The notes: generated from the sequence alone by a model not told the origin. 64,000 bases of DNA from Opitutales bacterium (GCA_965226885.1 CBDDEL010000014.1:128001-192000); one strand, 5' to 3'. Counted from the first letter of the stretch, positions 27,759 to 45,732 are shown. Program-made: numbers and translations.

Positions 27759-29396
27759 GAGGCTGTCCCAAAAATATAAAGAATATAAAGATTTTATAGT
27801 CAACTGGATGACGTTGATAAAAAGAGCCGGAAAGAGCAAGTTTTTGCTCGATCCGGCCAAAAAAGGGTTCTATAATTGAGTTAGCGAAAATCAATATAGC
27901 CCTTTCTATGTTCTATGAAAAATATAGCCATCCAATGCCTCCTGCGTCCAGCTTTAACTGTGGTCGACCGGTGCCTCGATTACGATAACTTCCGCGCCAC
28001 CATTGATCGAATCGATCGGCTGCTGATCGACTCGGAGGTGGAATCGCAGGCCATTGAGCTGGCCTTGGAGGGGTGGCCGCCAATGGGTCTAAAGGCCCGG
28101 CGGCAGCGGGCCAGTTTTGCCATCAAGGCACTGCGCATGGATACGCTGGGCCGTCTGCTCGGAGGGATTTCGTTTCGGCATTTATCGCGGGCTCTGGGCA
28201 GCAGCGATCTGTTGGCCGACTTTTGCCGTGTCCGGCAGATCGATGGCATCAGGGGCATCTCCAAAAGCACCCTGGAGCGGGCCTCGAAGTTTTTCAGCGA
28301 AGAGCAGTTGAGGGCCTTGCACCGGACCTTGACTGAGGTGGTGGGCGATGCCCTTCTGGCCCGGCAGGTGGGATTGGACAAGCCGATTGACACCACCATT
28401 TGCCTGATCGACGGCACCTGTTTGGAGGCTAACATTCATTGGCCGACGGACTGGGTATTACTCAAGGATGTAGCCGGCACGTTGCTCAAAGCGATCCGGC
28501 TGATCCGCGAGAAGGCCGGTGTGCGCCATCGCATGCCGATCGAACCGGAGCCCTTGGCTCGGCAGATGAATCGGCTGTGCATACAGATGACCCACAGCCG
28601 GCGGCGAAAGGACAGCGCGCGGCAGCGCAAGGGTATCTTGAGGCAGATGAAAAAGCTGTTCAAACGGATCGGGGAGCATGCCCGCAGTCACCGGGAATTA
28701 TTGCAAGCCTGCTGGGAGCAAAGCGATTACAGCGAAAAACAGGTCCAACAGATCCTCGCCCGGATGGAGCGCATGAGCGAGCAAATCCCGGTGGTCATCA
28801 AACAGGCGCACGAGCGGATCATTGGCGGCCGCCAGGTGAAAAACGCAGAGAAAGTCTTGAGTGTTTACGAACTCGATGGGCAGGTGATTGTGCGAGGTAA
28901 AGCGGGCCAAGAGGTCGAGTTCGGCAACACCCTGTTTTTGGGAGAAAGCGTTGAAGGGTACCTGCTGGACTGGAAACTCTACGGCAGCCGAACTCCAAGC
29001 GAAAATGAACAAATGCTAGAGAGTTTGCAAAGACAGAACCGCTTCAACCTGGAAGAACCCATAGCGGCCATGTGCGCGGACCGGGGATTTGCCTCCCAGC
29101 GGGCCCGCCGGCAGTTAGCCCAGGAGGGAATCTACGACGCGCTCTGTCCACGCGATCCGAAGCAGTTGAAAAACCGGATGGAGGAACCACTGTTCAGACA
29201 ATTGCAAAAGCGCCGGGCCAGCACCGAAGGGCGGATCGGGGTATTGAAGAATCGCTGGCAGGCCGGGCGGTTGCGCAGCAAAGGCTTTGCCAACCGCTCG
29301 ATCAGCGTAGCCTGGTCGGTACTCTCGCACAACCTATGGAAAGTAGCCAAGATGCTGGCCCAGCAAGACGAACTAAAAACCAAAGCGGCGGCCTAG
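27759..29396 (+). mobile_element. IS5-like type G copy 2 (transposase 27915-29396 intact, right end lost)
   Basis: Left IR and 493-aa ORF; IS1380-A follows its TAG directly. Confidence 0.9.
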
Positions 29397-30962
29397 CCCG
29401 GATATTTCATGAAGGGTAAAGTTTGGCTCGTTATTGCTATTGGAGATGGATTTCTTTGTATTTTGAGCAGATCGTCTTGATTTTTAGGTGTTTTTCAGGG
29501 TGTAGAGACACTGCCCCCTTTCCCCCATTGGTTCGGTAGTGCCGGGGGCAGCACCAATGCACCCTTTAGGTTGGCACCAATCGGCGGGCCGCATGGTTGA
29601 AAAGACTGGCCCAAGGATAACTCTCACTTAGGTGAAAGTGAATCGTTCGGGTGTTGCGCACGATGACCGCTCCGATCTTGATTAATTTGAGCCGCAGGGT
29701 GTGGCATTGGGCCCGCGCCCACTTCGTCCCTTTTAAGGCTAACCGGCGCATGGCTTCCATCAAGGTGTAGGCCAGCGCCGACAAGAGCAATCGCCACTGA
29801 TTGGCCCACCATTGATGGGCGCTGGTGCGCTCGCTGAACAATTGCATCTGTTCCTTGATTCGGTTCTCCATTTCACCGCGGCCACAGTATACCTTGTCGT
29901 AAAGCTCCTGGGGATCGCCCGGCAGGTTCGTCACCACGAAGCGCGGGTTGGACCCCTGTGCGGTGTGTTCGGCTTTATGGATGACCAACCGCAGCCATCG
30001 CCACGAATCGGCAGCATAGACGAAGTCCTGGAATAACCGTTGTTTTTTACCCCTTAGTTCGAACCATTCTTTGGCCTGCTTTTGCAACTGCTGGGCGTCT
30101 TGCTGCAAGCGTGCATTGCGAGCCATCCCCACGATGTAACTAACTTCGTTGCGGTCGCACCAAGAGAGTATCCGGTCTCGACAAAATCCACTGTCGGCGC
30201 GCCAAATAATCCGCGTACGGGGCCAGCTTTGGCGAATCCGTTTAACCAGCAATTTGAGGATGGCCCCGGCATGCTTGCTGGCATCGATCTTGCTCGGCCG
30301 CAGGTAGGCCACCAGCAGCTGATCACCGCAAAAAACATATAGCGGCAGAAAACAGTAATGATCATAATAACCGTGGAAAAAACGTCCCTCCTGGAGCCCG
30401 TGCACCGGATTGTCGGTGGCGTCAAAGTCCAGGATGATCTCTTCGGGTTCCTCGGCAAAGGAGCCCATGAACTGTTCGACCAACAGCTCGCTTACCGCAA
30501 AGGCCGCCCGCCAATCCTGCCCGTTTTCAAAACGACACAAAGTCGGCGCGCTGGCCAACGTTTCAATGCGCCCCGTTACCGTTTGCAACAATGGATCTTG
30601 GCGCAGGGTATCAAAGTCGTTCAAATCCTCATAGCCCGCCACCAGCCCGTAAACGCGCTGCCGCAGCATCCCCAATACCTCATGGCGTACTTTGCCCTTC
30701 TGCCGTTTGTCCACTAACTGTCGGGCCGCTCGTTCGGTCAAGCCCAACTGCCGATCCACTTCCCGGATCAAAAGCAGTCCGGCATCCGAAGTAACCTCTC
30801 CGCCCTTGAAATCAACCCGCACACGGCGGCCTTTTACCCTTGTCAACTGTAGCTTTAATTGTTTACCTTTTGTCATCGCTGATATTGCTTTAATTATTGA
30901 TCTATCCTGCTGTATATCAGCAGTTAAGCATATCAACGATACTTTTTTACGAAATATCCGGG
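29397..30962 (-). mobile_element. IS1380 type A copy 6 (complete; transposase 29566-30876)
   Basis: Both IRs; CTAG/CTAG flanks. Confidence 0.95.
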
Positions 30963-31738
30963 CTAGCCCGGATATTTCATGAAGGGTAAAGTTTGGCTCG
31001 TTATTGCTATTGGAGATGGATTTCTTTGTATTTTGAGCAGATCGTCTTGATTTTTAGGTGTTTTTCAGGGTGTAGAGACACTGCCCCCTTTCCCCCATTG
31101 GTTCGGTAGTGCCGGGGGCAGCACCAATGCACCCTTTAGGTTGGCACCAATCGGCGGGCCGCATGGTTGAAAAGACTGGCCCAAGGATAACTCTCACTTA
31201 GGTGAAAGTGAATCGTTCGGGTGTTGGGTAGTGTATAAAAAAAGAATGTTATTCTGTATTTTTAGCTGTACAAATAGCGTTAGGCAGTTTATTCTTAGTG
31301 CATGGTTACTAAAATTATTAATTGTCGGCACTGTGGAAGTGAAAATATCATTAAATCTGGCAAGACGCCCAACCATAAACAGCGCTACCGCTGCCATGAT
31401 TGTGGTAAACAAAGCCGCGAAAACCCCACAGTGAAATACACCGAAGAGCAAAAAGAAATGATCCTTCGAGTCTATCAGGAACGCAGCAGTCTACGCGGTT
31501 TACAGCGCGCCTTCGGGGTGAGTCCCAACACCGTTTTGAGTTGGTTAAAAAAAACGACAATCGCTGCGACCGCTCAAAAGCACGATTCTTGCGGCCCGCC
31601 GCCATGATGTCATTGAACTGGACGAACTGTGGTCTTTTGTGGGGCGCAAGAGCGATGCCCAATGGGTTTGGATCGCTCTTTGCCGACGCACCCGTCAAAT
31701 CCTCTCCTATGCCATTGGGCCTCGGGATTGGTATCGTT

Positions 31739-35235: not shown

Positions 35236-36647
35236 CTTTTCCAAGCTTAAGAGTATGCATGAAACCTGTCTGAGACTTTTCATTCATCAATATAATCAAG
35301 AATTAGCCACCATTCCTACTTAATACACTACCGGGTGTTGCGCACGATGACCGCTCCGATCTTGATTAATTTGAGCCGCAGGGTGTGGCATTGGGCCCGC
35401 GCCCACTTCGTCCCTTTTAAGGCTAACCGGCGCATGGCTTCCATCAAGGTGTAGGCCAGCGCCGACAAGAGCAATCGGCACTGATTGGCCCACCATTGAT
35501 GGGCGCTGGTGCGCTCGCTGAACAATTGCATCTGTTCCTTGATTCGGTTCTCCATTTCACCGCGGCCACAGTATACCTTGTCGTAAAGCTCCTGGGGATC
35601 GCCCGGCAGGTTCGTCACCACGAAGCGCGGGTTGGACCCCTGTGCGGTGTGTTCGGCTTTATGGATGACCAACCGCAGCCATCGCCACGAATCGGCAGCA
35701 TAGACGAAGTCCTGGAATAACCGTTGTTTTTTACCCCTTAGTTCGAACCATTCTTTGGCCTGCTTTTGCAACTGCTGGGCGTCTTGCTGCAAGCGTGCAT
35801 TGCGAGCCATCCCCACGATGTAACTAACTTCGTTGCGGTCGCACCAAGAGAGTATCCGGTCTCGACAAAATCCACTGTCGGCGCGCCAAATAATCCGCGT
35901 ACGGGGCCAGCTTTGGCGAATCCGTTTAACCAGCAATTTGAGGATGGCCCCGGCATGCTTGCTGGCATCGATCTTGCTCGGCCGCAGGTAGGCCACCAGC
36001 AGCTGATCACCGCAAAAAACATATAGCGGCAGAAAACAGTAATGATCATAATAACCGTGGAAAAAACGTCCCTCCTGGAGCCCGTGCACCGGATTGTCGG
36101 TGGCGTCAAAGTCCAGGATGATCTCTTCGGGTTCCTCGGCAAAGGAGCCCATGAACTGTTCGACCAACAGCTCGTTTACCGCAAAGGCCGCCCGCCGATC
36201 CTGCCCGTTTTCAAAACGACACAAAGTCGGCGCGCTGGCCAACGTTTCAATGCGCCCCGTTACCGTTTGCAACAATGGATCGTGGCGCAGGGTATCAAAG
36301 TCGTTCAAATCCTCATAGCCCGCCACCAGCCCGTAAACGCGCTGCCGCAGCATCCCCAATACCTCATGGCGTACTTTGCCCTTCTGCCGTTTGTCCACTA
36401 ACTGTCGGGCCGCTCGTTCGGTCAAGCCCAACTGCCGATCCACTTCCCGGATCAAAAGCAGTCCGGCATCCGAAGTAACCTCTCCGCCCTTGAAATCAAC
36501 CCGCACACGGCGGCCTTTTACCCTTGTCAACTGTAGCTTTAATTGTTTACCTTTTGTCATCGCTGATATTGCTTTAATTATTGATCTATCCTGCTGTATA
36601 TCAGCAGTTAAGCATATCAACGATACTTTTTTTACGAAATATCCGGG

Positions 36648-37269: not shown

Positions 37270-38478
37270 CTAACTGGTAGAGTCGAGGGCGAAGCGGATA
37301 TGGGGGGAGTAAAATTCCGGTTCGAGGAGGAAGGAGTCGTGGCCTTTTTCCGAATGAACGGTGATGCGGGTGGTTGGCAACTGGGCCTTTTTTAATTGGG
37401 ATTCGAGCCGTTTTTGCTCTTCCGGGAAATAGCAGGAATCGGAGTCGATGCTGAATATGAGGTGTCGCTGGTTCCGGCAGCAGCTGAACAGTTCCGTGTA
37501 ATCGGAAGTTTCTATATCGGCGAGGAGGTTGAAACTGGACCAGGCATCGAGAATTCTGAGGTAGGAATTGGCGTCAAACCGGCGGGCGAATTTTTTCCCC
37601 TGGTGCAGCATGTATGCCTCCAGGTCGTGATTGAATCGATACCAGTCGAATGATTTTTCCGAATGAGGCGTATTCTGTTTTACGCGGGTTTCGAGCAAAT
37701 CCGGGGCGACAAAAGTTTTATGGCTGATGATGCGGGCATGAGCCATGCCTGAATCGGGCGTTTTTTTACCATAATAGTTGCCGCTCTGGAAGTTCGCATC
37801 CTTTTCTATGGCGTAGATTTGCTCGAAAATAAGGATTTGTTGCCGCGGCGTTGTTTCCAACCCAGTGGCGATGAGGACGACGTTGCGCACCCGATCGGGA
37901 TAACGAACGGCAAAGTTGAGGGACAACTGGCCGCCGGTCGAGCTGCCCAGAACGGCGTGAGCAGTTTCGATGCCGAGATTATCGAGCAATTTTACCTGCG
38001 AATCCACTATGTCGAACAAGCTGATGCGGGGAAAAAGCGGCCCATAGGGAGCCGAAGTTTGAGGATTGATGGAGGTCGGTCCGGTGGAACCATAGCAGCC
38101 GCCCAGGTAATTTGCGCAGATGACGAAATATTGATCGGTATCGAGGGCCTTTCCGGGACCGATAAAGCGATCCCACCAACCAATCTGGCAGTCCTTTGTC
38201 CAGAGGGCGCCAACCCCCTCGACGGCGGGATTGAAACCGGCGGCGTGCTGGCTGCCGGTCAAAGCGTGAAAAAGAAGGATGGCGTTATCCCGCCGCCGGT
38301 TGAGGCGCCCGTAGGTTTCGTAACTGAGAGAGGCTTCCAGAAGGGATTCACCCGACTTCAATAAAATAGGATTGGAGGCATTTGCGATAGGCATCCACCG
38401 GGTCGTGGCGCGACCATTGGCGGAAACGGAAATGCTGCTTTCCCCAGTGCTCAAGGTTTTTGTCCTCTCGGAAATCAT
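37270..38478 (-). CDS. metX: Homoserine O-acetyltransferase
   Basis: HALTG, NYLGGCYGSTGP, GSSTGG nucleophile, RFDANSY, GHDSFL. Confidence 0.9.
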   Translation of the reverse strand: MISERTKTLSTGESSISVSANGRATTRWMPIANASNPILLKSGESLLEASLSYETYGRLNRRRDNAILLFHALTGSQHAAGFNPAVEGVGALWTKDCQIGWWDRFIGPGKALDTDQYFVICANYLGGCYGSTGPTSINPQTSAPYGPLFPRISLFDIVDSQVKLLDNLGIETAHAVLGSSTGGQLSLNFAVRYPDRVRNVVLIATGLETTPRQQILIFEQIYAIEKDANFQSGNYYGKKTPDSGMAHARIISHKTFVAPDLLETRVKQNTPHSEKSFDWYRFNHDLEAYMLHQGKKFARRFDANSYLRILDAWSSFNLLADIETSDYTELFSCCRNQRHLIFSIDSDSCYFPEEQKRLESQLKKAQLPTTRITVHSEKGHDSFLLEPEFYSPHIRFALDSTS

Positions 38479-38509
38479 GCCCTTAAAAGGCGCTTACAGT
38501 TATTTATTT

Positions 38510-39811
38510 TCAGCCTGCACCCGCGAGGACGGTTGGCAAGGCTTTGCTGAAGGCCAGGTCGAGGTCTGCAAGAATGTCGTCGATATTTTCAATGCCCACA
38601 GATAACCGGATGAGGTCCGCGGTTATGCCGCCTGCTGCCTGCTGTTCCTCGGTCATTTGCGAATGTGTGGTGGTGGCCGGGTGAATAGCCAGGCTTTTGG
38701 CGTCACCGACATTTGCCAGATGCGAAAAGAGTTCGAGGCTTTCAATAAACTTGCTGCCCGCTTCCTTGCCGCCCTCGATTCCAAAGACGACCATGGCGCC
38801 GCCCTTGCCGCCCAGGTATTTCTGGTTCAGGGCATAGGCCGGATCGTTTTCCAGTCCCGGAAAGCGCACCCATTTGACGGCATCCTTTTTGCCAAGGTGT
38901 TTGGCCACCGCGAGGGCGTTTTCGCAATGCCGATCCATGCGTAAAGGAAGCGTTTCCACCCCTTGAAGGAAAATCCAGGCATTGTCCGGGGAAATGCAGG
39001 CGCCCAGGTTGCGCAGGGGCACTACCCTCATGCGGAGAATGAAAGCCAGTGGACTGAGATCGCCCAGGTCATGGGCCCAGCGAATGCCGTGGTAGCTCGG
39101 GTCGGGATCGGAAAGGAGGGGAAATTTCCCGCTCGTCCAGTCAAACTTGCCGGAATCTACCACCACTCCGCCAATGCCGGTGCCGTGGCCGCCGAGCCAC
39201 TTGGTGAGGGAATGAATAGAGAGATCCGCACCGAACTCTATGGGCCGCTCGAGGTAGGGAGTGGAAAAAGTGCTGTCCACCACCAGGGGAATCCCGTGGG
39301 CGTGAGCGATAGCGGCAATGGCCTCGATATCGGCCACATCAAGGCCGGGATTACTGACCGATTCGCAAAAGAGCAGTTTGGTTTTTTCCGTAATGGCGGC
39401 GGCAAAATTTTCTGGATGATTGGGATCGACGAAACGCGTCTTGATGCCGAACTGGGGCAGAATATCGTTAAACTGGGTGTAAGTGCCCCCATACAGATTG
39501 TTGGCCGATACAAGCTCGTCCCCGGCCTGGCAAAGATTGATTACCGAGTAGAACACGCCGCTGGTGCCCGAGGCCGTGAGGAGGGCGGCGGCCCCGCCGT
39601 CGAGGGCGGCAATGCGTTGTTCGAGGACATCGTGTGTCGGGTTCATGATGCGGCTGTAAATATTGCCGAGTTCTTTTAGGGCAAAGAGATTGGCCGCGTG
39701 TTCGGTGTTTTTGAACACATAGGAGCTGGTCCGATAAATGGGAACGGCGCGGGAATTGGTGGTGGGATCGGGCTGCGTCCCCCCATGAAGGCATGTGGTT
39801 TCAAATTTCAT
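38510..39811 (-). CDS. metY: O-acetylhomoserine aminocarboxypropyltransferase/cysteine synthase
   Basis: YSRIMNPT, HSLTKW PLP lysine, HLANVGDAKSLAIHPA. Confidence 0.93.
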   Translation of the reverse strand: MKFETTCLHGGTQPDPTTNSRAVPIYRTSSYVFKNTEHAANLFALKELGNIYSRIMNPTHDVLEQRIAALDGGAAALLTASGTSGVFYSVINLCQAGDELVSANNLYGGTYTQFNDILPQFGIKTRFVDPNHPENFAAAITEKTKLLFCESVSNPGLDVADIEAIAAIAHAHGIPLVVDSTFSTPYLERPIEFGADLSIHSLTKWLGGHGTGIGGVVVDSGKFDWTSGKFPLLSDPDPSYHGIRWAHDLGDLSPLAFILRMRVVPLRNLGACISPDNAWIFLQGVETLPLRMDRHCENALAVAKHLGKKDAVKWVRFPGLENDPAYALNQKYLGGKGGAMVVFGIEGGKEAGSKFIESLELFSHLANVGDAKSLAIHPATTTHSQMTEEQQAAGGITADLIRLSVGIENIDDILADLDLAFSKALPTVLAGAG

Positions 39812-39837
39812 GTTAGTTAAACTTATGTTATCTTATC

Positions 39838-40599
39838 TTAGGTATTTGATTTTGAAGGGTTGATTTTATCGCTGTAATTGATGTTGCAGTAAATGGGCCG
39901 GTTGCCGTTGGACGCCCTTAAGTGACGCCATCTCCCGGCCCGGCTGACTTCACCCGGTTTTACGGGAGTCGTGCAGACGGCGCATCCGATGCCTGCATAG
40001 GATTGAGCGTAAAGGGGGTGAACGGGGACATCATGCTCACGTATATAGGACTCTAATCGCTCAGAGTTCCAGTCAAAAAGCGGGTTGAAAACAGTGCAAT
40101 TAATGCGTGGGTCCCTGCTGATGGCCTGCACATCTGTGCGTCTATTGCCTTCGGCTCGCATGAGCCCGCTGATGAGGGCCTTGGCCTGGAAGCGATCGAC
40201 CGCTTTGATGAGGGGTAGTTCCTTGCGCAAATGGCAGCATAGGGGCTGTCCGTCAACATAGCGGTGAAGTTCCGCGGCAAACCTTTTGTTCTGTTCGAGG
40301 GGAGTCAGGTCCGGTTGCACAGTGGTAATATCCAGGCCGTATTTTTTCTGAAATTGATCCCGGATGGCCAGGGTCTCGGGAAAATGCAATTGGGTATCGA
40401 TAAAAACAATGTTGGCCTGTGCCCTGGTTCGGTAAATCATATGCATGAGGACGCCGGCCGTTTTCTGCATACTTGAGAGATGGATCGCTCGGGTGCCGTA
40501 AATGGCGTCGATCATACGAATCCGGTCCAGAGCATCCGCGGTCGCGAATTCCGCTTTATTGATTTCAGCTGCAAGTTCAGCTGCAAGCATAGTATTCAT
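39838..40599 (-). CDS. cysH: APS/PAPS reductase (CysH family, 4Fe-4S type)
   Basis: FIDTQLHFPET, CCHLRK, GCAVCT, RAGRW; true start most likely the ATG at 40599. Confidence 0.88.
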   Translation of the reverse strand: MNTMLAAELAAEINKAEFATADALDRIRMIDAIYGTRAIHLSSMQKTAGVLMHMIYRTRAQANIVFIDTQLHFPETLAIRDQFQKKYGLDITTVQPDLTPLEQNKRFAAELHRYVDGQPLCCHLRKELPLIKAVDRFQAKALISGLMRAEGNRRTDVQAISRDPRINCTVFNPLFDWNSERLESYIREHDVPVHPLYAQSYAGIGCAVCTTPVKPGEVSRAGRWRHLRASNGNRPIYCNINYSDKINPSKSNT

Positions 40600-40601
40600 G
40601 T

Positions 40602-41396
40602 TCAGGCGTTGACAATATAAGGTTGAGGTTGGTCGGTGAACTCCTGCCTCCCGGCGCAACCCAGTTGGCCGATGGCTGCTCCAATTTCGACCACAGGGCC
40701 GATGACGATTATGGCGGGGGGCTGCGCCTCGGCTGCTTTTTCCACGATATCGGCAAGGTTTCCGGTGTAGGTTTTCTGATCCGGCAAAGTTCCGCGCTCG
40801 ATAATGGCAACCGGTGTTTGCGGGCTTCGTCCAAACGTTGTCAGATTGGAAACGATTTCCCGCAGATGACGCACCCCCATGAGAAAGACGGCGGTGTCCA
40901 CCCGGGCGGCCAGTTCCCAATCGATCCCGAAGAGGGAGCCTCCGGCGGCATGCCCGGTAAATACGGCGAAATTAGCCGCCGTGCCCCTGTGGGTGAGGGG
41001 AATGCCCGACATGGCCGGCACTCCGCTGCACGAGCTGACACCCGGTATGAGTTGAAATTCAATGCCTGCCTGACGCAACTCAAGGCACTCCTCCGAACCG
41101 CGCCCAAATATGAACGGGTCGCCGCCCTTTAGCCGCACCACGGTTTTCCCCTGGCGGGCCCAGGCAATCAACAAACGCGCAATGCGTTCCTGCTCGCTGA
41201 ATGGCGTATGATTGCTCTGTTTGCCGACATAAATGTGCTCCGCCTGGGGGGCGTAAGAAGCGAGCAATGCTGGATTGACGAGCCGGTCGTAAAGGACGAC
41301 ATCCGCCTGCTTGAGGGCTTCCACCGCGCCCACCGTAATCAAGGATGGATCCCCTGGGCCCGCCCCCGCAATAATCACTTTTCCTGTCGTCGTCAT
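40602..41396 (-). CDS. cobA: Uroporphyrinogen-III C-methyltransferase
   Basis: GAGPGDP, VRLKGGDPFIFGRG, GIPLTHRG. Confidence 0.95.
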   Translation of the reverse strand: MTTTGKVIIAGAGPGDPSLITVGAVEALKQADVVLYDRLVNPALLASYAPQAEHIYVGKQSNHTPFSEQERIARLLIAWARQGKTVVRLKGGDPFIFGRGSEECLELRQAGIEFQLIPGVSSCSGVPAMSGIPLTHRGTAANFAVFTGHAAGGSLFGIDWELAARVDTAVFLMGVRHLREIVSNLTTFGRSPQTPVAIIERGTLPDQKTYTGNLADIVEKAAEAQPPAIIVIGPVVEIGAAIGQLGCAGRQEFTDQPQPYIVNA

Positions 41397-41416
41397 CTAA
41401 ATTTAATTAAGATAAT

Positions 41417-42103
41417 CTAAACCAGAACGGGTTCTTCCCGCGCCGATACCTTTTCGTTTTTGAATGATTCCAATAATTCGTTGAACCGTGCTTCCGCCGC
41501 TCCATCATTTTTCTTCAGGAGGCCGGGTAATGACGATTCGAGGACTGCGCTCCAAAATTGTTTGCGCACTTCATAGGTGGGCAGGGACCTGATGACCAAT
41601 GGGCGTTTGGATCCCAGGAAATCGGCCAGTTGACCGAGAGAATCGGTCAGCAGATGGCGTTCAATCCTGTTCCTCAATCGTTGGGCCATGGCCGGGCTTT
41701 TCCCGGAAGATGTGACCGCTACCTGAATCGGCCCGGAGCGGGCCACGGCGGGGTAGATGAAATTGCTGTTAGCCGCGTCGTCATGGGAATTGACAAGCTG
41801 CCGAGACATTGCAGAAGGGGAGCAGACCTCGCTTTTCTCCGCCTCGTCATCGGTCGTGACAACGACTAGAAAAGCGTCAATCGCATCGGAGGCCCGCACT
41901 TTCCGCCGCAACCACCGTACCTGGCCCTTTTCAGCCCACGACTGGATTTTGTCGTCCGCATTTTCAGCAATAATCGTTACCACGGCTCCAGCATGAAGGA
42001 AGCTTTCGATCCGGGAAATGGCAACTTCGCCACCGCCCACGACCAGGCATCGGCGGTCTGCCAAATCGAGGTATACGGGAAAATAATTGTTCGATGCGGT
42101 CAT
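41417..42103 (-). CDS. Precorrin-2 dehydrogenase/sirohydrochlorin ferrochelatase (CysG N-terminal part)
   Basis: LVVGGGEVA Rossmann motif, VN..DD...NF..PA, GKSP. Confidence 0.9.
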   Translation of the reverse strand: MTASNNYFPVYLDLADRRCLVVGGGEVAISRIESFLHAGAVVTIIAENADDKIQSWAEKGQVRWLRRKVRASDAIDAFLVVVTTDDEAEKSEVCSPSAMSRQLVNSHDDAANSNFIYPAVARSGPIQVAVTSSGKSPAMAQRLRNRIERHLLTDSLGQLADFLGSKRPLVIRSLPTYEVRKQFWSAVLESSLPGLLKKNDGAAEARFNELLESFKNEKVSAREEPVLV

Positions 42104-42106
42104 GAT

Positions 42107-43966
42107 TCAGGCGGGAACGAGGTCTTTCTCGGTAGTTTGATCCGGTTTTGAGTCCATAAATGTTGTTACCGTTTCGGGTTTCATCAGATCGACGGTGGCG
42201 GGGTTTTCCTGAAAGCGGCGAATAATGTCTTGCATTCCGGTGCGCCGCAGAAAGGCGCCCAAATCCTCGGCTTCGCTGCGGTTTTCAAGGTAAAACCGAA
42301 AAAGGACGTCGATGACGCCGGGGATCCGATCGAGGGGCACTTTTCTCAGGTAAAGCTGCGAGCCGTCAGTTGAGAGGACGGGCACTCCCTGAAAACGCCC
42401 GTCTGCCGAGCCGAGGAGCCTGATTTGGTAGCGGCCACTGCCGGAACCGATCAACCCGATGGTTTTGGTCGCCGGGCGGAAGCATTGGCGCTCGCACCCG
42501 GTTACACCGATCGATTCGGTCATGCCGCCCCAGCCGAGTTTTTCCAATTGGTCGATTAGGAGGGGTTCGATTTTTTCAGATTCGGTGTAGGCCAGGCGGC
42601 AGGTATCCAGGCCGACGCAGGCGCCCGATCGTAACCGGAGCGCCGAGTAGTCCGACCCATTGCGCGAGCCGTAGCCATGTTCCTTCAGGTCGGAAGTAAA
42701 CTCCTCTTTCGCTTCCGATGGAAGGCCTGCGAAGATCAGGTCCTGGTTCGGTGTGAATCGAAGTTCCACCGGATATTTGTCCATGATGAATCGAACCAGA
42801 GTTTTTAAACGGCCGTTGGGGCTATCGTCCGTCAACCGCCCGTTTTCGATGAATAATCCGTAATTAACCATATCATCGTCGGGATGATCCAGCCAGCCGT
42901 GGTGCAGGTGGCGTTTACCGATATCGTGGTCTGTATGGGGGGCATCGAGGGAGAAACCGGCAATATCCTCAACCTGGCGGCGGTACCAATCGATCCCCTG
43001 GGCTTTGACGACGTATTTGAGGCGCGCCCAATGCCGGTTTTGGCGGTCTCCCCAGGTTTGATGGACCTGCACGATGGCGTCGAGAATGGGCAGGAGGTTT
43101 GCTTCGGAAGCCTGGGCAAAGGGCTTGGCAAAGGCGGACATGGTCGGTTTGCCGTTCTTCTCGCCCTGGCCCCCGCCAATGTAGATTTGAAAACCTTGCA
43201 GCTTTTCCTGGCGCACCAACGGGGCAATTCCAAGGTCGTGGGTGAGCAGCTCGACGCAATTGTCGGGAATCAATAAACCAGTGGTTTTGTCGCGGATATG
43301 CGCGGAAATGCCGATTTTAAATTTTCGATTGAGGAGCTGCTTGCCGTATTTGAAGGATTTGCTGTCATCGCGAACGGCTTCCGGGTCGATGGCGAAAATC
43401 TTGACAAAAGGTTCTGCCGGCAGACGGAAAAAGCTGGTCAGCTGCTGGGCCAGCCGGTTGCCATTGAAGGTATCGCTGAACGAAGCCAGAGGGCAGGCCA
43501 TGACATTGCGGACATTGTCGCCGCAGCCATTGATGCTGTAGAGTCCGCTATGGGCCAGGGTGCGCACAATTTCAATAACATCCTGTTTCCTGACCCAGTG
43601 AAACTGGAGGTTCTGCCGGGTGGTAATGCGTAGCGAAGGCCGGTGTTCAGCGGCATGGGCATAGCGCTCGGATAAATCATCGAGGACCCGCCATTGCTCA
43701 CTTGTAATGGGGCCGCCACCGGGAATCGAAACGCGGATCATATAAACCCAATCCTTTTCCCGGCCCGTCCTGGCCCGGTTGTATTCGAGGTAGATGCCGT
43801 AGGATTTGCTCAGTTGCTCGGCTTCCCAGGCCAGCTTGGGATCGTCCTGGCGCAACTCTTCGTAAAGATCGCCACGCACTCCGTTGGAAGCCGCTTTGTT
43901 GAGCTCTTCTCGCGAGTGATCCTGCTGTGGGGTCAGGAAATTGGGTTCGAAAAATTTCTTTTTCAC
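42107..43966 (-). CDS. cysI: Sulfite reductase, siroheme/4Fe-4S hemoprotein (CysI/Sir-like)
   Basis: TTRQNLQFH, CGDNVRN, RKFKIG, ARLKY; CVGLDTC...GCERQC ligands. Confidence 0.88.
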   Translation of the reverse strand: MKKKFFEPNFLTPQQDHSREELNKAASNGVRGDLYEELRQDDPKLAWEAEQLSKSYGIYLEYNRARTGREKDWVYMIRVSIPGGGPITSEQWRVLDDLSERYAHAAEHRPSLRITTRQNLQFHWVRKQDVIEIVRTLAHSGLYSINGCGDNVRNVMACPLASFSDTFNGNRLAQQLTSFFRLPAEPFVKIFAIDPEAVRDDSKSFKYGKQLLNRKFKIGISAHIRDKTTGLLIPDNCVELLTHDLGIAPLVRQEKLQGFQIYIGGGQGEKNGKPTMSAFAKPFAQASEANLLPILDAIVQVHQTWGDRQNRHWARLKYVVKAQGIDWYRRQVEDIAGFSLDAPHTDHDIGKRHLHHGWLDHPDDDMVNYGLFIENGRLTDDSPNGRLKTLVRFIMDKYPVELRFTPNQDLIFAGLPSEAKEEFTSDLKEHGYGSRNGSDYSALRLRSGACVGLDTCRLAYTESEKIEPLLIDQLEKLGWGGMTESIGVTGCERQCFRPATKTIGLIGSGSGRYQIRLLGSADGRFQGVPVLSTDGSQLYLRKVPLDRIPGVIDVLFRFYLENRSEAEDLGAFLRRTGMQDIIRRFQENPATVDLMKPETVTTFMDSKPDQTTEKDLVPA

Positions 43967-44041
43967 TTTGAAGGGATTTCGTTTGGAGGTTATCTTTTTA
44001 AATCTTTGGAAAGTGGAACTAAACGCTGGAATGGCCTGAGA

Positions 44042-44254
44042 TTACTTATGTTGACTGAGGGTCCCGATAATTTCGTCTCGCCGCTGCCGGGCTTCGGCCA
44101 GGGATTTTGTGCCCAGAGAATGGCGGATCCGCTTTTTCGTCAGATAAGTTGGGTGAACGGTATAGTGAATGAACCATGTTCCATTATTGTTCCACAGGTG
44201 GTGGTTGGGATTATCGAGAGAAAACCTCAAGGCTTTGGGGTGATCTGTTTTCAT
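44042..44254 (-). CDS. Small basic hypothetical protein, integrase arm-type DNA-binding-like
   Basis: 70 aa, first gene of the operon; beta-beta-beta-helix pattern ending RHSLGTKSLAEARQRRD. Confidence 0.7.
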   Translation of the reverse strand: MKTDHPKALRFSLDNPNHHLWNNNGTWFIHYTVHPTYLTKKRIRHSLGTKSLAEARQRRDEIIGTLSQHK

Positions 44255-44312
44255 GTTGGATTTGCTATTTGCTTATTAAAGTGAAGTGAAATTGCGGGTG
44301 AATGTTTTGAAT

Positions 44313-44356
44313 AAAAACAAAAAAAGCCCCGCAGCTTGAGGAGGCTGCGGGGCTTT
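44313..44356 (-). terminator. Intrinsic terminator (attenuator) in the sulfur-operon leader
   Basis: 13-bp stem AAAGCCCCGCAGC/GCTGCGGGGCTTT followed by a long U tract on the minus strand. Confidence 0.9.
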
Positions 44357-44397
44357 AAAAAGTTAGTTCAGGTCTTATTATATTTTACCTGGTCGCT

Positions 44398-44457
44398 CTA
44401 TTTGATGGCACAGCCGTTCTCCTGTTGTTGGTTGATGCAACAGCACATAATCGCCAT
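44398..44457 (-). CDS. Putative Cys-rich leader peptide MAIMCCCINQQQENGCAIK
   Basis: ATG TGC TGT TGC run plus a fourth Cys; stop ~40 nt before the terminator of a cysteine/methionine operon. Confidence 0.75.
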   Translation of the reverse strand: MAIMCCCINQQQENGCAIK

Positions 44458-44706
44458 AATTATACAAATCCATGCCCCCGCCTTCGATATGAAGGGGATT
44501 TCAATGAATCCGAAACGATGTGTGTCAATAGACATGCTCAAAATAATAATTCGACGGGTATTTATCGGTTGAGAGTCTCTCAAGTCAAGAGAGATTCCCA
44601 AAAAACTGTGTCATAAAATTTTTCTCGGTCAAATCCGTCTTTAAGCAAACCTGCTGCCTTTAAGCAAACCTGCTGCAATTGCGTCATAGAATAATGAAAT
44701 ATGAAC

Positions 44707-45732
44707 CTACGGTTCACTGATCTCATCCATTCGGAGGAAGCGGGCGGCGTTGTTATAAAAGATGTCGCGCTTTTGTTCCTCAGACAGGAAATCGGCCGAT
44801 TCAATTCCGTCGATCGCCATTTCAATGGCTTCGGGCCAGAACAATTGGTCTGAGCCAAACATGAGGCGCTTGCCATAACCGGCCCGCATAAGACCCTTGA
44901 GGTAGTAGTGAAACTCTTCCCGCGGCCACAGCCATGGGAGGGTCGCCAGGTCGACATAAACTTGGGGATAGTTGTGCAACAAGGCCTTGATTTCCTGCAA
45001 GTAGGGCCAACCCGCGTGCATGACGTAGAGGCGTAATTTCGGGTGCCGTACCAGAACTTCCTCTAATTCCAGGGGGTTGCCGAGGGACATGCGCAAAGGC
45101 GAGGGGCCTTGTTGAGTCCCCGGTCCCATGTGCACGCCAACGGGCAGGTCTAACTCCTCAGCCAGGGCAAAATAGGGCTCCAAAGCAGGATCGCTGGGAG
45201 AAAGCCCCTGAAATTGGGTCGTTACTTCTCCCAGCGCTCCCAGTTTCCCAGCCAGGTAATCGGCTCGGAGGGAGGTTATATTATAGTGCGGGTCCTGGGG
45301 GGAGGTTTTACCGTTGATCATGGGCGAGGCTATAATTCGGTCGGGCGCCGCTGCCTTCCACTTATCGAGAAGTTCTCGATCCGGTCCGCAAAGGATAGCT
45401 TTAACGATGTTGAAACGTTTAAGGTTTGCAACGGAGGCTTCCATGATTGCCTCGGTGGAGATGGCTGCGGAAGGCTTGCCTGTGATTGGATTGAGCTTAC
45501 CCGGTGGGCCCAGAAAATCCGCCGGAAAAGCATGCAGATGCATGTCGATTATCGGACCCCTTGATTTCGGTTCAGCTCCAATTACACTCTGCAATGAGAA
45601 AATGAAAATTAAAAGCAGCCCGATTACTGTCGATGCCGGATGACAACCGGATTGTGAACGGAATGATAAACAAAATTTTATCATATTTCGATTCTTATAA
45701 TGGTATTCGACCAACTCCAACTCCTGTTCCAT
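44707..45732 (-). CDS. Amidohydrolase family protein (Amidohydro_2), secreted; start uncertain
   Basis: IDMHLH, GE, PVGVHMG, HAGWP, FGSD, NAARFL. Confidence 0.88.
   Translation of the reverse strand: MEQELELVEYHYKNRNMIKFCLSFRSQSGCHPASTVIGLLLIFIFSLQSVIGAEPKSRGPIIDMHLHAFPADFLGPPGKLNPITGKPSAAISTEAIMEASVANLKRFNIVKAILCGPDRELLDKWKAAAPDRIIASPMINGKTSPQDPHYNITSLRADYLAGKLGALGEVTTQFQGLSPSDPALEPYFALAEELDLPVGVHMGPGTQQGPSPLRMSLGNPLELEEVLVRHPKLRLYVMHAGWPYLQEIKALLHNYPQVYVDLATLPWLWPREEFHYYLKGLMRAGYGKRLMFGSDQLFWPEAIEMAIDGIESADFLSEEQKRDIFYNNAARFLRMDEISEP

Follow-up and report, generated by a model that had tools for sequence, protein, structure and literature searches.

This locus of an Opitutales bacterium raises the question of what a strong intrinsic terminator is doing at the head of a sulfur-assimilation operon. 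The window, by which we mean the whole stretch of 64,000 nucleotides (nt) that was analyzed (GCA_965226885.1 CBDDEL010000014.1:128001-192000), carries on its minus strand a short open reading frame (ORF) with a cluster of cysteine codons, then the terminator, then a gene for a conserved small protein of 70 amino acids (aa), here called int70, and then cysI and further genes for sulfur metabolism (Table 1). The original prediction held that this leader is an attenuator in which a ribosome on the cysteine codons controls transcription past the terminator. We think it probable that the element is a ribosome-mediated attenuator of transcription that responds to the charging of cysteine transfer RNA (tRNA-Cys), and possibly that of elongator tRNA-Met as well. 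This reading is favored because, in a second genus of the same family, the terminator must be read through, and because the sole feature that the leaders share 5' of the terminator is a cluster of cysteine codons that keeps its spacing from a strand complementary to the terminator arm. Within the limits of sequence comparison, conservation and geometry support the core of the prediction, namely, a cysteine-codon leader ORF whose translation chooses between an antiterminator and an intrinsic terminator.

The leader ORF had been described as a mini-ORF, MAIMCCCINQQQENGCAIK*, at positions 44457 to 44398. That frame is present, but it makes up only the last 19 codons of a 45-aa ORF (MSIDTH...IMAIMCCCINQQQENGCAIK*) whose first ATG lies at 44535. 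This ATG and the reading frame are kept in all five genomes of the window's genus, and the length differences 5' of the cysteine cluster are without exception multiples of three. The regulatory cluster itself is ATG TGC TGT TGC, and the window's leader has extra Cys codons at 44466 to 44464 and at 44412 to 44410. Within the genus the cluster reads MCCC in four genomes and MCLC in the fifth (G001); in the second genus it reads CMCSCC, CSCMCC, and CVCMCC, likewise in the frame of the ORF. All eight leaders have an in-frame cluster of two to four Cys codons with a Met codon adjacent or embedded, and TGC and TGT interchange synonymously within these clusters. The peptides are otherwise unalike, and the second-genus ORFs, of 29 to 40 aa, are unrelated to those of the window's genus in the rest of their sequence. 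A scan of the entire 5.48-Mb genome for ORFs of at most 70 aa with a Cys cluster near the stop codon and then a terminator-like hairpin gave two places, this locus and a weak case with a hairpin of 7 base pairs (bp) on another contig. The feature is more than a chance occurrence, and no other strong case of this type turned up in the genome.

The family sample comprised nine genomes, and the leader was found in eight of them, all five of the window's genus and all three of the second genus. Alignment of orthologous upstream regions had been proposed as a check for conserved Cys runs, and the cluster does recur in both genera, in a common layout: an ORF of 29 to 45 aa with the Cys cluster, the terminator, int70, and then cysI or cysH. 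The segment from 44620 to 44067 could be aligned in the four other genomes of the window's genus. Between the two genera, little of the leader is conserved beyond the Cys cluster, the GGCUG strand described below, and the terminator. In the ninth genome (G006, locus L009), int70, matched from residue 16, and then cysI stand behind unrelated upstream sequence in which neither a Cys ORF nor a terminator was found, and the leader may have been lost or displaced there. Among 12 metagenome loci scanned, one had the leader and encodes the same leader peptide as genome G005. A 59-aa ORF with CCC at metagenome locus L141 was taken as chance; it overlaps the promoter region, lies 5' of an aptamer, and is followed by no terminator. 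In a scan of 80 loci from named genomes, Cys-cluster ORFs appeared in genus relatives only (three by rule and the MCLC genome by eye), an unrelated 22-aa ORF at L102 being set aside as chance. The regions upstream of 26 sulfite reductase loci from other Opitutales families contained no small ORF (sORF) with a Cys cluster.

The terminator was confirmed as a 13-bp hairpin followed by a T tract. Nine of its 13 pairs are G-C, its loop is 8 nt, and its 10-bp core has a predicted energy of -22.4 kcal/mol, which makes it the strongest of 32 terminator-like hits between positions 30000 and 49999. A hairpin with a T tract is found in 8/8 leaders (-15.4 to -28.2 kcal/mol). In the alignment of the eight leaders, the 10 core pair positions are 94.9% paired, and 4 of the 10 are changed on both sides. 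The second genus provides the clearest view of what this terminator must do. There, the T-tail ends 5 to 12 nt 5' of the int70 ATG, the int70 stop codon overlaps or abuts the cysH start, and the upstream neighbors are divergent. That leaves no room for a promoter after the terminator, so int70 and cysH would be transcribed only by read-through, and, given the divergent neighbors and the closeness of int70, the terminator serves no upstream gene. A terminator that transcription has to pass must be conditional.

The candidate means of blocking it lies in the last nine codons of the leader ORF. The tetranucleotide AGGA and the strand GGCTGTG, both located where the prediction had placed them, are complementary to the terminator loop TCCT and to CGCAGCC (44349 to 44343). 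The sequence GGCTG(T/C)GCC is kept 3' of the cluster throughout the window's genus although it is read in two frames (...NGCAIK* or ...DGCA* versus ...RMAAP*), which argues that selection has acted on the RNA and not on the peptide. In all eight leaders, 13 to 23 nt separate the end of the cluster from the antiterminator strand, and 0 to 9 nt separate the end of that strand from the stop codon. Given the usual footprint of a ribosome, this spacing is what a trp-type switch needs.

RNA folding under a ribosome constraint agreed with the geometry. When a ribosome was placed on the Cys cluster and the terminator 3' arm was left out, the minimum free energy (MFE) structure joined the last part of the ORF to the 5' arm and loop of the terminator in every one of the eight leaders, with energies of -13.4 to -25.9 kcal/mol. 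Moving the ribosome to the stop codon left only the terminator in the prediction, again in 8/8. The last 33 nt of each ORF were then compared, as a duplex with the terminator 5' arm, with dinucleotide shuffles. The fraction of shuffles at or below the observed energy was 0.002 to 0.095 per leader, and the energy summed over the eight leaders beat 1,000 of 1,000 shuffles, the sequences being related to one another. The seven core pairs of the antiterminator show 90% standard pairs, compared with 31 to 61% when the partner is slid by one to three columns, and one pair position occurs as C-G, U-G, and U-A. Two genomes of the second genus differ by a one-base insertion in the antiterminator strand that is accompanied by one in the terminator arm (a single event, seen by eye).

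On the attenuation reading, transcription would start at a promoter just 3' of a 9-mer, TTATGACAC, and the 45-aa leader ORF would be translated cotranscriptionally. With Cys-tRNA plentiful, the ribosome would reach the stop codon and cover the GGCUGUG strand, which ends 8 nt before it; the 13-bp terminator would then form, and RNA polymerase would stop in the T tract. With Cys-tRNA scarce, the ribosome would stall on the Met-Cys-Cys-Cys codons, leaving free the GGCUGUG/AGGA strand that lies 21 nt beyond the cluster. This strand would pair with the 5' arm and loop of the terminator upon their transcription, and the blocked terminator would allow transcription into int70, cysI, the sirohaem genes, cysH, metY, and metX.

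Two further elements of the original prediction dropped out of this scheme. The motifs CTGTTG (44443 to 44438) and CAACAG (44427 to 44422), proposed to form a protector hairpin, are present in the window, but they are kept in only some members of the genus; as part of the mechanism the hairpin was rejected because neither G001 nor the second genus keeps it. A TATAAT at 44464 to 44459, suggested to allow a nearly leaderless start at the second ATG, is likewise there, but it is conserved in only part of the genus and was not called by a promoter scan. Despite its presence in the window, a leaderless start was rejected for lack of conservation. In the second genus, in-frame Cys codons lie 5' of the ATG adjacent to the cluster, which argues for a start further upstream.

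Several observations weigh against attenuation. Covarying hairpins had been named as a check, and the terminator, as described above, has them, but the antiterminator is weak in this respect, with two of its seven pairs invariant and one changed on both sides. Its shuffle control was not significant (44 of 500 shuffles reach the observed percentage paired, and 304 of 500 reach the covariation score). In two of the eight genomes the arm has a stronger partner elsewhere in the leader than in the proposed strand (-18.1 versus -15.2 in the window's genome and -17.2 versus -12.8 in G005), and G005 is without the GGCUG strand, its substitute pairing involving mostly the loop and leaving most of the terminator stem free. 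Without a constraint the whole leader folds into the terminator at equilibrium in 8/8, so antitermination would have to be kinetic. A conserved anti-antiterminator, the "1:2" helix, was not found in the leaders, and an untranslated leader would consequently default to read-through. The leader peptides are long for the class, their start codon is not certain, and their Shine-Dalgarno signals are weak; the cluster of G001 is only Met-Cys-Leu-Cys; 41 to 59 nt separate the T-tail from int70 in the window's genus, where a second promoter is possible; and the evidence all comes from eight related genomes in two genera. None of the sequencing runs listed as containing this DNA is annotated as RNA, and four runs labeled as RNA gave no coverage of 43900 to 44750, a result that is neutral as to expression.

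One alternative keeps the Cys-codon ORF as a regulator and gives up the antiterminator. Regulation would then proceed by translational coupling or occlusion as in mycobacteria, by Rho-dependent polarity, or by a stalled ribosome that hinders the hairpin, and the GGCUG complementarity would be a by-product of a G+C-rich stem. The nonsignificant covariation, the competing leader segments, and G005, with no homologous strand, all fit such a view, as do the polycysteine sORFs of mycobacteria, which affect translation and not termination (10.1101/834739). Against this view, pairing of the strand with the 5' arm is predicted for all eight leaders, its spacing to the Cys cluster and to the stop codon is maintained, its nucleotides are conserved across a change of frame, and a canonical hairpin with a T tract follows it in each case. 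We regard regulation without an antiterminator as unlikely.

A second alternative takes the ORF as an independent gene for a Cys-rich microprotein, for example, a metal- or redox-active one, with its own promoter and terminator, the int70-cys operon being transcribed separately. A frame that runs from a conserved ATG and varies in length by whole codons only, the very strong terminator, and the 41- to 59-nt gap before int70 in the window's genus are what such a gene would show. The peptides, however, share only their Cys/Met cluster and have C-terminal parts read in different frames, the 5 to 12 nt before int70 in the second genus leave no promoter room, and cys genes stay linked even though the gene that follows int70 is cysI in one genus and cysH in the other. 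This makes a separate microprotein gene quite improbable. That the leader is instead a protein- or ligand-binding RNA switch, either an unrecognized riboswitch or a target of int70, with the ORF incidental, is highly improbable, since, despite riboswitch-like aptamers at the same position in sister families, a conserved hairpin in the ORF, and another after the stop codon and before the terminator, all Rfam families score below their cutoffs, the two genera share little of the leader beyond the three elements named above, and the in-frame conservation of Cys codons with synonymous changes is left unexplained.

The two additional hairpins deserve a brief description. The one within the leader ORF was drawn by RNAalifold with five pairs, none of which is changed on both sides, and it may, as a weak suggestion, be a pause or timing element for the attenuator. 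The spacer hairpin between the stop codon and the terminator has the arms CAGGT/ACCTG in three genomes and AGGTA/TACCT in two, as judged by eye, and it is predicted by RNAfold in members of the genus.

The aptamers of the sister families place the attenuator in a broader context. In 12 of 38 loci from other families scanned with Rfam, a sequence resembling the S-adenosylmethionine (SAM) riboswitch SAM-I/IV lies just 5' of int70, scoring 36.9 to 40.4 bits against a gathering score of 41.1. These aptamers sit between TTATGACAC or the promoter region and int70 in other Opitutales families and in Chthoniobacter-like and other records, and several have a terminator after them. A rough 8-mer taken from the aptamer core was present at 43 of the 80 named-genome loci, and most of the metagenome loci other than the one with the leader had SAM-like aptamer sequence when inspected by eye. 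The window differs. An Rfam scan, which had been suggested as a means to exclude SAM riboswitches, gave 25 weak hits between 43500 and 45200 listed at E values up to 10, none near its gathering score and none from a SAM family, and the leader is thus without a SAM match. The whole genome of the window had no match to SAM-I (RF00162) or SAM-I/IV (RF01725) at E values up to 0.01. On these comparisons, the gene appears to have traded one sensor of sulfur status for a different one. One further family (L011, L042, and L046-L050) has a well-conserved aptamer-like leader about 60 to 180 nt 5' of int70, with the pattern GCATCCA.AGA...CCAACCGAGCG...CTACGGTGG...GGATGCGCGG. At the thresholds applied, no Rfam family picked up this leader, and no terminator is evident in it; possibly it is a diverged relative of SAM-I/IV that works at the level of translation.

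The gene common to all of these leaders, int70, was missed by the original prediction, in which the terminator stood directly before cysI as the first gene of the operon. Its product weakly resembles the arm-type DNA-binding domain of integrases, as judged from Pfam matches to DUF6538 (24.9 bits) and Arm-DNA-bind_3 (20.0 bits), both below the cutoff of 27. The AlphaFold2 model was mediocre, with a predicted local distance difference test (pLDDT) value of 69.7. A Foldseek comparison of the model with the PDB gave nothing at an E value of 0.001 or better, a wide VIA-align search gave Z scores of at most 3.1, and a profile search of PDB sequences gave no meaningful match. The protein occurs at the same position with 70 to 89% identity in the four other genomes of the window's genus, and the idea that it is a decayed integrase was rejected because both sequence and position are conserved across the genus. 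Homologues of similar size were found in 85 of 401 Opitutales genomes and are widespread in records of Verrucomicrobiota. The homologues (L026-L050 and L051-L142) have about 66 to 110 aa and a highly conserved core, NPNHHLWNNNGTW.xHYT...TKERIRRSLGTK...ARxRRD, and are mostly present in a single copy. They usually stand behind a SAM-I/IV-like aptamer, and sulfur genes are often not next to them; one metagenome locus adjoins a metY-like gene. Many copies from other families have C termini (...AVA, ...LAA, or ...AA) that recall degradation tags. The int70 protein may be a regulator of sulfur status.

The 9-mer TTATGACAC is invariant in the five genomes of the window's genus, and it also stands 5' of int70 homologues from other families and at metagenome loci. 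It lies about 10 to 20 nt 5' of a -35-like element at int70 loci of several families (L007, L008, L011, L042-L050, and L132-L142), whether a Cys leader or a SAM-like aptamer comes next, and at Chthoniobacter-type loci (L054-L066) it occurs as the reverse complement. The window's genome contains 12 exact copies, compared with about 42 expected from length alone. The other 11 had no context in common, and the use of the motif as a marker for a regulon was dropped for that reason. At int70 it may be a regulator-binding site. The region that follows in the window, TTGACT and ATAAAT separated by 17 nt, was not called in a consensus promoter scan, as the -10 rule was unmet; CTTGAC and CGATAAATA do not vary among the five genomes of the genus, and we infer that this is the promoter.

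Taken further, the data allow a more ambitious proposal, in which the element reads Cys-tRNA and Met-tRNA jointly, int70 is a new small DNA-binding regulator of sulfur metabolism that may bind TTATGACAC at its own promoter, and the family swapped a SAM riboswitch for an attenuator. Joint sensing is possible because the regulatory cluster always includes a Met codon. The leaders of the int70-cysH genus have one Met codon, and there are up to five in the genus whose operon carries metY and metX. We put the combined proposal forward tentatively and consider it rather doubtful as a whole.

Attenuation by leader peptides is textbook knowledge for the trp, his, leu, thr, ilv, and phe operons. In the enterobacterial attenuators (trp, his, leu, thr, ilv, and pheA), a leader ORF with codons for the end product is followed by a terminator before the first structural gene, and an alternative helix uses the terminator 5' arm. 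The Opitutales element has the same kind of codon cluster in an ORF, an intrinsic terminator likewise, and a predicted alternative helix sharing the 5' arm, and its stop codon is placed so that a terminating ribosome would mask the antiterminator strand. It differs from them in the amino acid that it would sense, cysteine and possibly also methionine, in a peptide of 29 to 45 aa, in having no conserved region-1/region-2 helix that we could find, in its occurrence in Verrucomicrobiota (Opitutales), and in a first regulated gene that encodes a small DNA-binding-like protein and not an enzyme. By these comparisons, the element would belong to the known class of leader-peptide attenuators, with an embedded invariant Met codon, a long peptide, no clear region 1, and a DNA-binding-like first product as its distinctive features.

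Closer in the amino acid sensed is uORFC-8-2, a predicted ribosome-mediated attenuator with a Cys-codon upstream ORF (uORF) before cysS in Rhodobacterales (alphaproteobacteria). It has two tandem Cys codons around positions 14 to 15, a first stem that contains the Cys codons, and a terminator stem with a U run (PMC8632094). The conserved Cys codons in a uORF and the terminator stem with its U run are common to both elements, whereas the leader described here precedes int70 and sulfate-assimilation genes (cysI or cysH) and has three to five Cys codons together with Met; the two were compared by description only, and no sequence relation was detected. Mycobacterial polycysteine leaderless sORFs such as Ms5788A act on translation, the Cys tract pairing with a downstream Shine-Dalgarno region (10.1101/834739). 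Cys-rich leaders in Actinobacteria, to which the original prediction had alluded, were indeed predicted, without terminators (PMC1262725). The mycobacterial and actinobacterial sORFs resemble the Opitutales leaders in having consecutive Cys codons before cysteine-related operons and in the stall on those codons as the proposed signal. They are leaderless and lack conserved terminator hairpins, whereas here a canonical terminator is present in 8/8 together with a predicted antiterminator, and a leaderless start is unsupported. The SAM-I/IV riboswitch of the sister families shares with the attenuator its position before int70, often a terminator next, and a report on sulfur amino acid status; it senses SAM directly through an aptamer, for which the window's leader has no match.

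The 2020 preprint stated that uORF-mediated attenuation for cysteine had not previously been described and reported a translational mechanism (10.1101/834739). A search of open-access papers and bioRxiv found no such element reported for Verrucomicrobiota or before sulfate-assimilation operons, and the only terminator-based Cys case that it found was the predicted uORFC-8-2 before cysS of Rhodobacterales (PMC8632094). If our reading is true, a terminator/antiterminator attenuator for cysteine before a sulfate reduction operon extends the mechanism to a new amino acid pathway and to a new phylum. It would also illustrate clearly how a riboswitch and a leader peptide can substitute for one another at a single orthologous gene. 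Attention is drawn as well to int70, a widespread small protein that is consistently placed under predicted control by sulfur status.

Table 1. Features of the int70-cys locus in the window, in the order of transcription (all on the minus strand)
Feature	Position	Strand	Remarks or basis
Amidohydrolase gene	45732-44707	-	5' neighbor of the leader region
Perfect tandem duplication	44676-44639	-	19-nt unit, 2.0 copies; between the amidohydrolase stop codon and TTATGACAC
TTATGACAC 9-mer	44616-44608	-	Candidate regulator-binding site; 5' of the promoter-like region
Promoter-like region	44588-44560	-	TTGACT (44588-44583), 17 nt, ATAAAT (44565-44560)
Leader ORF	44535-44398	-	45 aa; contains the mini-ORF noted earlier
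Hairpin within the leader ORF	44497-44476	-	CCCCTTC ... GAAGGCGGGG; RNAalifold, over 5 genus sequences
Regulatory cluster	44448-44437	-	Met-Cys-Cys-Cys; in frame, kept across leaders
Antiterminator 5' strand, predicted	44423-44409	-	AGGA (44423-44420) and GGCTGTG (44415-44409)
Spacer hairpin	44392-44368	-	CCAGGT ... ACCTGA; enclosed by the antiterminator helix; RNAfold
Intrinsic terminator	44356-44313	-	5' arm 44353-44344, loop, 3' arm 44335-44326, flanking A/T pairs, T tract 44325-44313
int70	44254-44042	-	First gene after the terminator
Downstream operon	37270-43966	-	Pfam domains
cysI	43966-42107	-	Pfam
cysG-like sirohaem synthase	42103-41417	-	Pfam
cobA-type methylase	41396-40602	-	Pfam
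cysH	about 40600-39838	-	Start not fixed; Pfam
metY-like	39811-38510	-	Pfam
metX-like	38478-37270	-	Pfam

The genes behind int70 were assigned from Pfam domains, which back the list given by the original prediction (cysI, cysG-like, cobA, cysH, metY-like, and metX-like). Gene order from the amidohydrolase to metX is unchanged in those genus relatives whose loci extend that far, four other genomes having been compared. The sulfite reductase of the window's genus is about 32 to 37% identical to the enzymes of other Opitutales families, and a search at an E value of 1e-60 or better did not find it in any of the three second-genus genomes. In that genus the attenuator precedes int70-cysH alone, so the two genera link different cys genes to int70. 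About 650 nt past the end of metX lies a DDE_Tnp_1_4 transposase gene (35328 to 36620, minus strand), at least 300 nt of which are duplicated with 100% identity 5,684 nt away (about 29389 to 31226). An additional 268-nt repeat lies near the transposase copies, and these repeats suggest recently active insertion sequence copies beside the operon.

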